Positions 2,090 to 28,922 of a DNA stretch of 41,566 bases are shown here, one piece after another. The position numbers and the translations under genes are program-made. Source of the stretch: a virus (Duplodnaviria > Caudoviricetes). The notes beneath the pieces are model-generated. The model ran no database searches. It saw nothing but the letters and a program-made list of their open reading frames with translations, and was not told the DNA's origin. The stretch spans positions 1 through 41,566 of IMG/VR virus record IMGVR_UViG_3300020043_005694; one strand, written 5' to 3'. Each line of letters starts with the position of its first letter. Within the stretch, counting starts at the first letter, position 1.

Positions 2090-2199
2090 AGGTGTGTTTT
2101 AGAGGTAGCTATTACGTTACTTCCTTTTAATACAATCTTTCTTTTAGCCGTAAACAAGGCTCTGCGGTGGCAGTTATCACACTTAGAGAGGAGCTTCAT
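2047..2199 (-). CDS. Small zinc-finger protein, 50 aa (not in ORF track)
   Basis: MKLLSKCDNC...HLCQSC..., two CxxC; start overlaps the groEL end. Confidence 0.6.
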   Translation of the reverse strand: MKLLSKCDNCHRRALFTAKRKIVLKGSNVIATSKTHLCQSCTNQLKRVLK

Positions 2200-3682
2200 G
2201 GTCAGGGAAGGTTACGATAGTAGGTGCAGAGAGGGCAGTAGCAGCCACACTCACGGCATTACGCACAGCATTTACTTCTACGTTGGTTGGGTTAACAATA
2301 CCAGCTTCAATTAAGTTCACTGGCTTACGGGTACGTGTGTCGTAGCCGTAGCCAAGCTTGAGGTCAGTGGCTTCTATCCCGGCGTTCATTAAGATTTGAA
2401 ACATCGGAGCCTTGAGTGCCCAGCCCAGTATCTTTCCACCTATTGTATCGCTTGGTGTGTAGGCGTAAGCCATCGTGACACCAGCACCAGGGACAATACC
2501 ACCGTGGAGGGCTTGATAGGCAGCACTGATAGCGTCTTCTACCTTAAGGCGACGGTACGATAGGGCTGATTCACTAGGAGCTCCCACGAAGTATCTTGCG
2601 GTCTTAGTGTTAAGACGTGATACGCGGTGTGCGCTGTCTTCTGTGGATTCATCTTGTAAGATTTTGATATGGTCGGTCATATCCTGTACGCCGTCAATGA
2701 AGGTGTCTGACTTAGTGATGATGATGTCTACACACGTACCGAGGTCTTCGAGCTTGGCTTCTTTCATACCGTATGAGGCGGGGTCAATAAGCTTGGCTCC
2801 AGTTGCTAGTGTCAAGTCTTCAAACCATTGGTCTTTCCAGAGTACGGGCATCTTTACAATCACGATACGGAAGCCACGAGCCATACGTGTCTTAACGAGG
2901 TCGGGTACTACCAGTGGGTCTACTTCATCAGCAAACACCACGAGGTCAGTTGTTCCTTTAGCATGGAGCATTGCTGCGAGGCGTTCAAAGTCAGCAGCTG
3001 AGGCTACCTTTTGTTTTGATACTAGTATCTTAGGGTTCTTTAAGCGGATTTGGTTGGTATTCGCGCCGGTATCACTCGCGTCACACATATACGGGCTAAG
3101 GTATCCAGCTCCATTGACAGTGATACCTGAGCCAATCGTGTATGAGTCTTCGGTGGTCTTTGATACATCCCAGTACACCAATCCTTCCTTACCAATCGTT
3201 TGGTATATCTCTTGGATACGGTTGCCAATCTCCTCATCTTCTGCCGAGATAGTGGCTACTTGAGATACATTGTCCACAGTGATGTCCACAGACTGAGCTC
3301 GGATAGCTGCTTCAACCTTTGGCAGTTCTTCTTCGAGTGAGCGTTTAATCTCAATCGCTGAGTATTCTGAGTTCATCCCCGCTTCAATGATAGCTGCCGT
3401 AAGGACAGTGGTGGTACTAGAGCCGTCACCGGACTGTTTGTTAGCACGTGATACTGCTTCCTGGAGGATTTGTTTACCCATCTGTTCGATTGGGTCAGCA
3501 AACTGAATAGCCTGGAGAATAGTGAAGCCGTCGTTTGTCGTGAGGAAGCCAGGATTTTCTATTGCCTGAATGATAGCGTTCGAGCCAAGGCTGCCCATCG
3601 TAGCTCCTACAGCTTTACTAGCTTTGTTAATACCTGATACGAGGCGGGCGGTTGCGTCTGTGTATAAGTTATCGTGTGCCAT
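2183..3682 (-). CDS. groL: Phage chaperonin GroEL (Cpn60), divergent
   Basis: TNDGFTI, GDGSSTTTVL, VATISA, KVEDAISA, GIVPGAG; 499 aa, no GGM tail. Confidence 0.95.
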   Translation of the reverse strand: MAHDNLYTDATARLVSGINKASKAVGATMGSLGSNAIIQAIENPGFLTTNDGFTILQAIQFADPIEQMGKQILQEAVSRANKQSGDGSSTTTVLTAAIIEAGMNSEYSAIEIKRSLEEELPKVEAAIRAQSVDITVDNVSQVATISAEDEEIGNRIQEIYQTIGKEGLVYWDVSKTTEDSYTIGSGITVNGAGYLSPYMCDASDTGANTNQIRLKNPKILVSKQKVASAADFERLAAMLHAKGTTDLVVFADEVDPLVVPDLVKTRMARGFRIVIVKMPVLWKDQWFEDLTLATGAKLIDPASYGMKEAKLEDLGTCVDIIITKSDTFIDGVQDMTDHIKILQDESTEDSAHRVSRLNTKTARYFVGAPSESALSYRRLKVEDAISAAYQALHGGIVPGAGVTMAYAYTPSDTIGGKILGWALKAPMFQILMNAGIEATDLKLGYGYDTRTRKPVNLIEAGIVNPTNVEVNAVRNAVSVAATALSAPTIVTFPDHEAPL

Positions 3683-3887
3683 ATTCTATGTTAAATCGGG
3701 GGTCATTAGATTGTAGGGCTTGCCTTATGTGGTAAGAGATATAAATGTGATTAGGTGTATCTATTGGGAAATGCTTTTTAAGTCCACACCGTGAGCATCG
3801 CTCTACTAATCCTTTATTATCACTCATGAGGATTTTAAAGTCATGGAGCATACTGCGGCGACACTCACTATTCTGGTAGCGGCTCAT
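3669..3887 (-). CDS. Small Cys/His zinc-binding protein
   Basis: C..HDF..ERCSRCG; overlaps groES and groEL. Confidence 0.6.
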   Translation of the reverse strand: MSRYQNSECRRSMLHDFKILMSDNKGLVERCSRCGLKKHFPIDTPNHIYISYHIRQALQSNDPRFNIEYGTR

Positions 3888-4110
3888 AGGCTACGAGGTC
3901 TTTATATTCCACAAACCAGACAAACTTATCCAACTCTCCTTTGACGGGGAACTTCTTAGCAAGCCATGAGTCAAAATACACTAGCGTTCCTTTGAGTTCA
4001 TCCGGGCCTTCAAGCACAGTTCCTACCTCCTGGTAAGTTGTACGGTCTGAAGCCATAAAGGTGTCAGTTTCGAGTGGCTGTATCATCAGGTGATTGTTGA
4101 GTGGTTTCAT
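3868..4110 (-). CDS. groS: Co-chaperonin GroES-like protein, 80 aa (start revised to ATG 4110)
   Basis: MKPLNNHLMIQP...GTVLEG...GTLVYF...FVEYKDLVA follows the Cpn10 pattern; next to groEL. Confidence 0.75.
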   Translation of the reverse strand: MKPLNNHLMIQPLETDTFMASDRTTYQEVGTVLEGPDELKGTLVYFDSWLAKKFPVKGELDKFVWFVEYKDLVAYEPLPE

Positions 4111-4331: not shown

Positions 4332-4547
4332 CTATTCCTTCTCCATGAAGGTGGACTCTACAGGTTCTTCTGCCGCTGGCTTTGGTGTCAGGATGACAGG
4401 GGTACTTTGCATAGTAACCTTAAAACCACCAGCTCCATCCGGTACGAACACAGGGTAGGTAGCGAAGTCTACTTGATGCTTCTCTACGAGTTCACCATAT
4501 TCTTTTAAAAACTCATTCCTCTTAGCTACTTTTTCTTCTTCGGTCAT
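4332..4547 (-). CDS. Hypothetical protein
   Basis: ATG ORF with AT-rich leader, first gene of the leftward operon. Confidence 0.7.
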   Translation of the reverse strand: MTEEEKVAKRNEFLKEYGELVEKHQVDFATYPVFVPDGAGGFKVTMQSTPVILTPKPAAEEPVESTFMEKE

Positions 4548-4579
4548 ATAAATATATTATATTAGTAACACTTCCGTAA

Positions 4580-4709
4580 GCCTCCGTTAAGCGTCGAACT
4601 TAACTTGGCTCTGTAGCCCTGTGCGGGGTTGGGGTAACTTGTGGGAAAGTATCTTATTAGGTTTCATATTATTATGGTACACAGGCTGGAGCAAAGACCA
4701 TCTGGAGGC
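4580..4709 (-). ncRNA. Putative tRNA/tmRNA-like structured RNA
   Basis: GCCTCC/GGAGGC closing stem stacked on GTTAAG-TTCGACG-CTTAAC T-arm; long internal helix 4692-4679/4624-4608. Confidence 0.45.
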
Positions 4710-4727
4710 GGCATAGAACTATCTATG

Positions 4728-4752
4728 TACTATTGTACTATACACAATAGTA
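4728..4752. promoter_or_regulatory. Operator-like inverted repeat in the divergent region
   Basis: TACTATTGT-N7-ACAATAGTA, perfect 9-bp arms; overlaps a leftward TACAAT -10-like hexamer. Confidence 0.5.
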
Positions 4753-4764
4753 AACAGGTAGGGG

Positions 4765-4793
4765 TTGTACTTGTGGATAACGGGTGCTATGCT
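4765..4793 (+). promoter_or_regulatory. Rightward promoter TTGTAC-N17-TATGCT with a DnaA box in the spacer
   Basis: Extended -10 TG at 4785; TGTGGATAA 4772-4780 is a perfect DnaA box on the minus strand. Confidence 0.6.
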
Positions 4794-4843
4794 AAATGTG
4801 CGTTTATTTATTGTTTAGTAAACGTTTTCTATTGCAACAACGT

Positions 4844-4874
4844 CACCTATCCTTTCCCAAGGGTAGGTGGTTTT
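4844..4874 (+). terminator. Intrinsic terminator
   Basis: CACCTATCCTT-TCCC-AAGGGTAGGTG followed by GTTTT. Confidence 0.65.
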
Positions 4875-4882
4875 GGTATAAT
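4874..4882 (+). promoter_or_regulatory. Extended -10 promoter TGgTATAAT
   Basis: Perfect TGnTATAAT upstream of a structured leader and the CHAP gene. Confidence 0.6.
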
Positions 4883-4988
4883 AAAGCTTCCAGTTATGGC
4901 GCGAGCGCATCCCTCTGTATAGCATCGGTAGTCAGGTAGATTAGTCCTCCTACTGCCGTGAGAATTTCAGTCACTCCATTTATGGCTT

Positions 4989-5399
4989 ATAAAATATCTA
5001 TTTATAATTATTCTCTTGGCGTTACCATTTACGGTAATCGCACAGCCAAAAGAACCTATACCCACGGGTAACTTAGCGGATGTAATTCTGCTCAAGGAAA
5101 ACAACCCAAACCCCATTCCGGTCATCATACCGAATACTGTTTTGTGTAATTGTTGGGCGTATGTTAAGTCTGTCTATCCATCACTACCATCAAGCAGCAG
5201 TATCAAAGCTAACCTCACTGGCACTGGTTCTGTGGCAGTTTTTTATTACCCTAAAGTTGGACTCCATCATTACGCGGTAGTCGTTAGTGAAACAAATGAT
5301 AGCTACCTCATTGAAGAAACTAACTATAAACGATGCAAAAAAGGTAGCCGAACTATTCCAAAAGACGACCCTAGTCTCATTGGGTTTTTCCCCATTTAA
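4989..5399 (+). CDS. Secreted CHAP-like peptidoglycan hydrolase (start uncertain: ATA 4989 or TTG 5016)
   Basis: NCWAYV (Cys), GSVAVF, HYAVV (His), EETN; in-frame signal-peptide-like IKYLFIIILLALPFTVIA. Confidence 0.7.
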   Translation: MKYLFIIILLALPFTVIAQPKEPIPTGNLADVILLKENNPNPIPVIIPNTVLCNCWAYVKSVYPSLPSSSSIKANLTGTGSVAVFYYPKVGLHHYAVVVSETNDSYLIEETNYKRCKKGSRTIPKDDPSLIGFFPI

Positions 5400-6907: not shown

Positions 6908-7014
6908 ACCTCAATCGGGGTGGCCAGTGAAATAAAAAGTCGAGTAGCTTCACTAGCGACCTCAGTTGTGGTCGGCTCCCGAGTAATCGGGCGCTGGCCA
7001 GAGTTGAGGTCGCT
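6908..7014 (+). promoter_or_regulatory. Structured 5' leader of the replication initiator
   Basis: Long hairpin 6955-7014 capped by GTAA, plus an alternative pairing partner at 6908-6929. Confidence 0.6.
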
Positions 7015-28163: not shown

Positions 28164-28922
28164 TTATGCGCTTAATGATGCTGCAAGAGCAGCTTTAGCT
28201 TTAGCATCTTTTAATATCTTACCAGCAGTTCCAGCCGTTACATACGGGGCGAGGTCAGTAGTCCACGGGTCGCCAGCAGAACCAGCACCGTTAAGCTTCT
28301 CTCCCATCGTACCAGATACATTGTACTCTGCTGCAAAGGCGTTCCACACAGCGGCAACAATTTCCTCTACCTGGGCTTGAGATTGGTTTACAAAGATGGC
28401 GGCGGTCATTTCTCCTAAAGCCTCTTGACTAGCAGTGAGGGTGCCTTCACCAGTAAGGTTTGCAACCATTCCCGCCAAAGCCCCAGCAGCAGCGGTTAAA
28501 TCACCAGAACCGACTAAGTTTGCGATAGCAGTTAGTTGCCCTGATATATTGGCTGTAAGCGAACCAGAGCCAACAAGGGAGGCAATCATTTCTACAATCA
28601 AGCCAGCTGCTGCGTTTGATACGGTGCCTTCTCCAGTTAAGTCTGCTGTCCCAAAAAGCCCTTCTATACCTGTCCCCGCTACAGTGCCTGTTCCAGGAAC
28701 ATAAACACTCATTCCACCTTCTTTTGGAGCTAATACAAGACTGTATGGTGGTCTATAGCCTGAGCCTGGTTGAGACATTCGGTCTGTTACATTAACTACG
28801 TTGTTATCACCCACGTAAAACGTCATCATCTTATTCAGATTGTAGTTGTACGTTGGGTCTAAGTTGCCACCGAGTGAACGGCTTTGGTTGGCATTTCTAA
28901 CTGAGTAGTTATTAAGTAACAT
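28164..28922 (-). CDS. Structural protein with Gly/Ala repeats
   Basis: Repeated A.L.G.G.LTA units, AAVWN, GTMGEKL. Confidence 0.65.
   Translation of the reverse strand: MLLNNYSVRNANQSRSLGGNLDPTYNYNLNKMMTFYVGDNNVVNVTDRMSQPGSGYRPPYSLVLAPKEGGMSVYVPGTGTVAGTGIEGLFGTADLTGEGTVSNAAAGLIVEMIASLVGSGSLTANISGQLTAIANLVGSGDLTAAAGALAGMVANLTGEGTLTASQEALGEMTAAIFVNQSQAQVEEIVAAVWNAFAAEYNVSGTMGEKLNGAGSAGDPWTTDLAPYVTAGTAGKILKDAKAKAALAASLSA

Follow-up and report, generated by a model that had tools for sequence, protein, structure and literature searches.

RNAs that have the shape of a tRNA but carry no anticodon are already known from phages, namely RNA C and RNA D of phage T4, both without known function, and a tag-less tmRNA of mycobacteriophage DS6A. 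For T4 RNA C, two publications give the function as unknown (PMC9697503, PMC3014915), while the DS6A molecule is described as a “TLD only” tmRNA (PMC4131195, PMC11915505). YrlA-type Y RNAs occur in phages as well, and for one of them cleavage by RNase P and addition of a CCA end are described (PMC4201824). Regulatory RNAs of phages are among the substrates of RNase P (PMC4919922). The RNA element analyzed here resembles such anticodon-less tRNA mimics, but belongs to none of those it was tested against (T4 RNA C, DS6A, and YrlA).

Genomic Setting and Host

The window, i.e., the whole stretch of 41,566 nt that was analyzed (IMG/VR record IMGVR_UViG_3300020043_005694), is a 41.6-kb tailed-phage record that is rated complete. 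It encodes terminase, portal, major head protein, replication genes, and groEL; a tyrosine integrase was not found in this genome. The RNA element belongs to the minus strand, sits where the replication genes of the plus strand and the genes of the minus strand run apart, and is followed on its own strand by ORFs of 71, 88, 80, and 72 aa and then by groEL (Table 1). The name groES for the 80-aa ORF comes from resemblance by eye, and the searches did not bear it out (0 matches in Pfam, NCBIfam, and PDB).

Table 1. Coordinates of the RNA element, its parts, and neighboring features in the window.
Feature	Position	Strand	Remarks
tRNA-shaped RNA element	4580..4709	-	130 nt in window; 111-144 nt in four homologues
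-10-like hexamer	4732..4737	-	22 nt before the RNA in window
End (acceptor-like) stem, 5' strand	4704..4709	-	6 bp; 30/30 cells paired; 2 two-sided pairs
D-loop-like linker	4693..4703	-	first 9 nt invariant in 5/5; GG at 4699-4698
Outer arm helix, 5' strand	4689..4692	-	partner strand 4611-4608 (register I)
Inner 7-bp arm helix, 5' strand	4679..4685	-	35/35 cells paired; 3 two-sided pairs
Variable loop	4625..4678	-	54 nt in window; 35-68 nt in family; predicted mostly unpaired
Inner arm helix, 3' strand	4618..4624	-	partner strand 4685-4679
Outer arm helix, 3' strand (4611-4608), and short linker	4605..4611	-	holds invariant CCA
T-arm	4586..4604	-	6-bp stem; 30/30 cells paired; 3 two-sided pairs
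End stem, 3' strand	4580..4585	-	next base U in window
A/T-rich spacer to next ATG	4548..4579	-	32 nt in window; 24-25 nt in other four
71-aa ORF	4332..4547	-	adjoins RNA element downstream in 5/5; slot marker gene; no assigned function
80-aa ORF	3868..4110	-	GroES-like by eye only
groEL	2183..3682	-	phrog_5725, E 1e-81; PF00118

Searches with the operon proteins led to four homologues of the element at the same position in related ~41-kb phages, two of them in IMG/VR records (L001, L002) and two among 30 metagenome loci (L179, L181). BLASTN of positions 4500-5000 against 50,697 phage records gave short chance matches only, and scans of viral DNA with sequence patterns recovered as true members only the contigs of L001 and L002 (2 of 9, 2 of 20, and 2 of 10 matches). 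A looser pattern for viral DNA yielded one true member among the 120 matches listed (19 of 64 parts scanned), and with a pattern for GTDB none of the 120 matches listed passed the pairing filter (35 of 64 parts scanned). A covariance model built from the five sequences, R1, had no match in 151 Patescibacteria genomes, in a run without positive control, and over 55 sources matched only the five sequences it had been trained on. Those parts of the literature that were searched hold no description of the phage RNA element. The supplementary material of PMC10690425 may list it, because three IMG/VR copies would satisfy the minimum of that study; in six of its files, the invariant motif and two contig numbers had no match.

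Patescibacteria make weak use of Shine-Dalgarno sequences, and a Shine-Dalgarno-like 4-mer precedes only one of 22 long ORFs in the window. The KhpA-type protein of a related phage matched 189 of 201 Patescibacteria genomes, with 45-51% identity in the best matches (the 201 include an unpublished genome, G161, on which alone no claim depends), compared to 30-41% in four of five genomes from other phyla. As indirect signs, the KhpA identities and the rarity of Shine-Dalgarno-like 4-mers make Patescibacteria the likely hosts.

Several further features of the region deserve mention in their own right. In L001, a 171-aa ORF, by eye of the HNH type, is inserted between the 72-aa gene and groEL (4483-4998). 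The start of the window contig (1-1886, plus strand) carries nuclease-like and AAA/zeta-like kinase genes that do not match the content after groEL in L001 and L002, and may be foreign or chimeric. A strong 28-bp imperfect hairpin (6955-7014) lies directly 5' of the replication-initiator gene.

On the divergent strand, a second conserved leader of ~110 nt follows a -10-like box (4880-5000, plus strand, in the window; also in L001, L002, L021, L022, L024, L181, and L189). It contains conserved blocks and a hairpin with two-sided changes, has no Rfam match, and runs into the gene of a secreted-type protein (ORF 5016-5399, plus strand), whose N-terminus combines a conserved W/R-L-I-K with a hydrophobic stretch. 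In most of the eight loci, no in-frame ATG, GTG, or TTG stands shortly upstream of this N-terminus; in several, this stretch contains an ATG in another frame or a TGA in frame. As a regulatory RNA, the second leader may control translation from a non-standard start. A terminator-like hairpin (4842-4871, plus strand) overlaps the region of the divergent -10 box, and GC-rich inverted repeats occupy the equivalent position in L002, L021, and L022.

A Conserved, Structured RNA

All pairings proposed from the window are present on the minus strand: the end stem, the T-arm with its 7-nt loop, and an interrupted arm around a loop of the predicted size and place. The account of this arm needs one correction: the interrupted helix does close the loop, but the helix next to it has 7 bp, with an internal loop between this inner helix and an outer helix of 4-5 bp. 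On its own, the window element folds modestly beyond chance (z = -2.63; three of 200 shuffles were equally good), and single-sequence folding of the four homologues gives z-scores from -1.29 to -2.47. When the five sequences are aligned, 94 of 94 cells are paired and eight of 19 pairs have changed on both sides, with two-sided changes in all three helices counted (end stem, inner helix, and T-stem). Not one of 500 shuffles equaled this result, a count that is not a probability and, the five rows being related sequences, overstates the significance. Sliding the partners by 1-3 columns in this five-row alignment lowers pairing to 32-52%, and from the G·U pairs it follows that the RNA is read from the minus strand. 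All five sequences belong to one seven-member clade, so that invariant bases may partly reflect kinship. Judged by its pairing and by compensatory changes in five sequences, the stretch 4580-4709 is a real, conserved structured RNA. Its paired stems should, by prediction, assemble into the top half of a tRNA-like molecule, with a long open loop enclosed.

In all five sequences, end stem and T-stem add up to 6 + 6 = 12 bp, and the T-loop is of the UUCRA type and closed by a G-C pair (7 nt in four sequences, 6 nt in L181). The 5' strand of the end stem is C-rich, opposite to tmRNA, which starts with GGG. The base following the stem is U, U, U, A, and A across the five, i.e., the discriminator is not fixed, and CCA is encoded in none. 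At the other end of the molecule, the variable loop is closed by the last pair of the inner helix, an invariant U·G. The loop drifts in length and sequence, and its 3' end is C-rich in four of five. Compared to the 150 nt upstream, which as a background are themselves a promoter region, it is poor in G (8.9% vs. 16.9%; Fisher p = 0.0013) and rich in C (27.8% vs. 19.5%; p = 0.006). Folded alone, the loops reach 0 to -6.7 kcal/mol, i.e., weak structure or none.

The outer part of the arm can be paired in two registers. Register I leaves the GG of the D-loop-like linker free for the T-loop, with 23 of 25 cells paired, three G·U pairs, and one two-sided pair. In register II, the linker UGG pairs with the invariant CCA in front of the T-arm, and 21 of 25 cells are paired in the extension, six as G·U. 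RNAalifold chooses register I, in line with the conserved topology of a tRNA or tmRNA domain that had been proposed. By minimum free energy of the single sequences, register II is ahead in each of the five, by 1.2-2.8 kcal/mol (probability of GG pairing with CCA, 0.64-0.94), and covariation cannot choose between the two because UGG and CCA are both invariant. In tRNA, contacts between D-loop and T-loop build the elbow. By analogy, the linker GG is predicted to contact the T-loop, and such tertiary contacts, which the energy model ignores, would favor register I; the register II pairing would hide the D-loop mimic and counts against an elbow.

Both registers might also be used in turn. A two-state switch, in which UGG toggles between the elbow and the linker CCA or the loop start and thereby gates cleavage or downstream expression, would draw on the small energy difference just given and on the ability of the D-loop-like linker to pair with the first five loop bases in four of five sequences. 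We consider such a switch highly improbable, given the poorer pairing of register II, with its higher share of G·U, and given that no ligand, conserved ORF, terminator, or ribosome site is present to be gated.

Neither tRNA nor tmRNA

ARAGORN, one of the checks originally suggested, reports no tRNA or tmRNA gene in the window and only an unrelated tRNA-Leu in four loci. Another, Rfam, gives no match at the gathering score in the window; at E ≤ 10, four chance matches lie near the element, all outside it, and at E ≤ 1 none was obtained over five loci. Apart from its T-loop, the element shows few traits of a tRNA: D-arm and variable arm are not conserved, a loop of variable length takes the place of the 7-nt anticodon loop, and the 7-bp acceptor with 5-bp T-stem is absent, although the 12-bp total is kept. 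The cloverleaf that had been offered as an alternative fold fails on the same ground, as the first pair of its D-stem holds in two of five sequences and its variable-arm hairpin in one.

Alanine identity, in tRNA numbering, is given by the pair G3·U70. The alanine identity of tmRNA (GGG start, G3·U70, and A73) is found in none of the five sequences, which agrees with the earlier observation that the window lacks G3·U70 and an encoded CCA. The U-Y-G-A-Y motif of the D-loop and the GAC-type linker, which we take to be the SmpB site, are lost as well: U-Y-G-A-Y is found in none of the five, and CA(A) replaces the linker, whereas all tmRNAs of Patescibacteria that could be parsed, 24 from 26 loci, have both the GGG start and U-Y-G-A-Y. 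Moreover, no tag frame or peptide is shared across the five loops, as a standard tmRNA would demand. The element is, by these sequence features, neither a tRNA nor a tmRNA, and it is likely not aminoacylated, considering the variable discriminator, the missing G3·U70, and the C-rich start of the stem.

In register I, however, the element does have tmRNA-like features, namely a stemless D-loop with GG, a long interrupted helix 2, and a short linker to the T-arm. This is the topology of the tmRNA tRNA-like domain, and tmRNA scored over the cut-off in 57 of 61 Patescibacteria genomes. The element could be a mini-tmRNA that has lost its tag and, in the manner of the DS6A RNA, sequesters SmpB so that ribosome rescue is blocked, all the more as a DS6A-like molecule inhibits tmRNA whether or not it can be charged (PMC4131195). 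Nevertheless, this origin appears doubtful: the presumed SmpB marks kept by DS6A as well as by the Patescibacteria tmRNAs are gone, the stems are divided 6 + 6 instead of 7 + 5 and have reversed polarity, neither Rfam nor ARAGORN sees a tmRNA, and model R1 scores the DS6A RNA at only 6.9 bits.

The 26-codon ORF around which a translational switch had been imagined exists (4667-4587, minus strand). Its ATG has a counterpart in the loop of L181 only, at a different place and with an unrelated peptide, and the loop of L002 holds no ATG, GTG, or TTG. Loss of the pairings with conservation of the peptide would have spoken against the RNA; the reverse is observed, and from this comparison the ORF is incidental and private to the window. 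A mini-ORF switch, an intron-containing true tRNA, or the relic of an attP site would be extremely improbable identities: the existence of the ORF in the window is countered by the lack of conservation of both ORF and cloverleaf, and an attP relic by the absence of a tyrosine integrase and by the covariation of both ends of the stem, which a relic would not display. A YrlA-type Y RNA was rejected as well, given that none of three records searched contains a Ro60/TROVE gene, that Rfam offers no match, and that a D stem is missing.

An Accessory Occupant of a Swappable Slot

The gene for the 71-aa protein was used to define the slot that the RNA occupies. It was present in 43 of the 45 loci examined (counts include three duplicate loci; left out were six weak matches, L203-L208, repeats of the same contigs, and L003/L037). 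Upstream of it, five loci carry the RNA, 19 a KhpA-type gene, and 18 something else or nothing, and one is too short. Since 38 of the 43 loci thus have the same downstream gene without the RNA, and ORFs of 71, 88, and 80 aa as well as the 72-aa ORF separate the RNA from groEL, the notion of a needed groES/groEL switch is not supported. Rather, the RNA is, by the comparison of these loci, an accessory occupant of a swappable slot, in an operon that does not need it.

A tree built on the 71-aa and 80-aa proteins unites the phages that carry the RNA, five in number, with two that have a ~90-aa ORF in the slot into a single group of seven (support 94/95), and the RNA was probably gained once. In these two sister phages, the ORF, of no known family, replaces the RNA (L021 1875-2141; L022 1870-2139); L202 has a similar ORF. 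The KhpA-type KH gene (PF13083) is directly adjacent to the 71-aa gene in 17 of the 19 loci. For such phage-borne genes in the first slot of the groEL operon (L025 1783-2046 and 18 other loci), a protein search returned 60 homologues. Searches of whole records found no RNA in L021, L022, L024, and L016 and no KhpA in L001, L002, L021, L022, and L024. RNA and KhpA never co-occur, but this exclusivity is uninformative, because the nearest relatives of the RNA carriers lack both and the exclusivity follows the tree. L017 (about 2200-2290) and L018 carry in the slot, directly after the -10 box, a different, long bulged hairpin of ~90 nt without Rfam match, downstream of which lies a likely paralogue of the 71-aa gene.

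Transcription, Processing, and a Putative Function in trans

A -10-like hexamer lies 20-23 nt before the RNA in all five loci; no match for a -35 partner was found, and the promoter scan did not list the hexamer. Where relatives have nothing in the slot, the distance from such a hexamer to the ATG is mostly 6-8 nt. The difference between the two distances implies a removable 5' leader of ~14-17 nt on the RNA, with transcription presumably from the -10-like box. An ATG ~6-8 nt after the box was noted in L004, L024, L030, L035, L184, L186, L189, and L201, and leaderless mRNAs seem usual in this phage group. Behind the RNA, no terminator-like site was found on the minus strand, and a free RNA would therefore depend on cleavage. 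The spacer of the window contains a second TATAAT (4561-4556), found otherwise in L181 only.

RNase P measures a length of 12 bp, that of acceptor plus T-stem. The substrate layout is present, i.e., a 12-bp stack ending in a T-loop and preceded by a 5' leader, the latter deduced from the -10 spacing, and type A RNase P RNA is encoded in all five Patescibacteria genomes tried. Cleavage by RNase P at the first base of the end stem is hence probable. However, the 6 + 6 split and the absent 3' CCA are not ideal for the bacterial enzyme, for which a 7-bp acceptor stem is a major determinant (PMC4201824). Both the tRNA mimic and the RNase P/Z signal among the original suggestions thus stay in play.

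Under the reading that we prefer, with a rough probability of 45%, RNase P and RNase Z release a stable and likely unchargeable tRNA-shaped RNA whose loop makes it a decoy in trans. Transcription would begin immediately behind the -10 box, at the head of the groEL operon, and to the enzymes of the host the 12-bp stack with its T-loop would pass for a pre-tRNA. RNase P would remove the 5' leader, and RNase Z or exonucleases would trim the 3' side, with or without addition of CCA, which would also free the downstream mRNA with a ~25-nt A/U-rich end. Held on a nuclease-resistant, tRNA-shaped frame, the single-stranded C/A-rich loop might then bind a single-strand RNA-binding protein of the host, and the elbow itself could occupy a tRNA-binding host factor.

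Alternatively, the element might serve only in cis, as a signal at which the cut by RNase P or RNase Z gives the groEL-operon mRNA a new 5' end or sets its stability, whereas the freed RNA would be idle. The missing terminator would suit this view, as would the A/T-rich spacer, which has nearly constant length in four of five loci, and the rarity of Shine-Dalgarno-like motifs, given which the position of the 5' end may matter for translation. A minihelix is a sufficient substrate for RNase P. Yet covariation extends to the inner helix (three of seven pairs), and the loop is kept open and G-poor. Both properties go beyond the needs of a cut site and favor a stable RNA that acts in trans. Considering also the many loci that do without the RNA, and the second -10-like box before the next ATG in the window and L181, a purely cis-acting signal seems rather unlikely.

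The freed RNA could also act by base pairing, as an antisense RNA matured by RNase P like C4 of phage P1, its loop pairing with phage or host mRNA. C4 is an RNase P substrate (PMC4919922), and the position at the head of an operon, the layout of a processed precursor, and the exposed C-rich loop are all compatible with this possibility. In phage sequence (2 kb downstream, 2 kb of the divergent strand, and the window), no target emerged: duplexes of the loop with the flanking transcripts were at shuffle level in 10 of 10 tests (best, 8/40), and perfect complements to the loop elsewhere in the window were no longer than expected by chance. With a poorly conserved loop sequence and no Rfam match to C4 in addition, antisense action of this type is very doubtful.

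As to the partner of a trans-acting decoy, a candidate comes from the slot itself. A C-rich RNA is reported as the ligand in a crystal structure of KhpB (bioRxiv 10.64898/2026.10.12.757534); a Jag_N domain query for KhpB had no match in five of five Patescibacteria genomes, a result that speaks neither for nor against KhpA. The shared slot and the C-rich ligand of KhpB offer KhpA as a lead only. That the unchargeable tRNA frame, with its reversed acceptor polarity and 6 + 6 stack, is a natural tRNA scaffold by which the host is made to mature and protect a single-stranded C/A-rich sponge for its own KH-domain protein KhpA is accordingly a long shot. If true, the sponge would be an RNA answer where related phages carry their own KhpA gene in the same slot, and post-transcriptional control in Patescibacteria would be the target of a phage RNA.

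Comparison With Known tRNA-Like RNAs

T4 RNA C (species 1 RNA, rnaC; NC_000866, 70908-71046) is, like the element, a phage RNA of similar size (139 nt), with a T-arm near the 3' end, ends that are brought together, a long inner arm, and no anticodon. In contrast to the element, it lies in a tRNA cluster, folds tightly (z = -4.57), has an extra hairpin, and lacks a large open loop. In RNA C, the match of model R1 is confined to the T-arm, with 5 bits, and the model reaches at most 7.2 bits on the T4 tRNA region with RNA C and RNA D, and RNA C is thus an analogue rather than a detected homologue. For T4 rnaD (L329 1554-1672), the annotated ends appear shifted by 1-2 bases, the CCA ending just outside the feature.

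The tag-less tmRNA of DS6A (JN698994, about 28478-28560) shares with the element an acceptor-like stem, a stemless D-loop with GG, an interrupted arm, a short linker, a T-arm, and the lack of a tag frame. Unlike the element, it keeps 7 + 5 stems, the GGG start, G3·U70, an A discriminator, and the UCGAC motif within ~80 nt, and it has no counterpart of the 35-68-nt open loop. YrlA-type Y RNAs mimic the tRNA elbow and do not need charging, which is a further likeness, but are built from D and T stem-loops with a Ro60-binding module next to a Ro60 gene (PMC4201824). In mascRNA/menRNA, plant mitochondrial t-elements, and C4 of P1/P7, as in the element, a tRNA-like fold is embedded in a longer transcript, where it is the cut site of RNase P/Z and can release a small RNA (PMC4919922). 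These examples come from other hosts and have other folds, and for the element cleavage is only predicted.

Whereas the compared examples either keep alanine and tmRNA marks or fold tightly, the element does neither: it keeps the putative elbow and the 12-bp measuring length, drops the marks for charging and SmpB, and carries a large open loop. It thereby separates the look of a tRNA from charging, offers a small, testable model for such phage RNAs, and points to host control at the RNA level by phages with Patescibacteria as their likely hosts, a group in which RNA biology has received little study.
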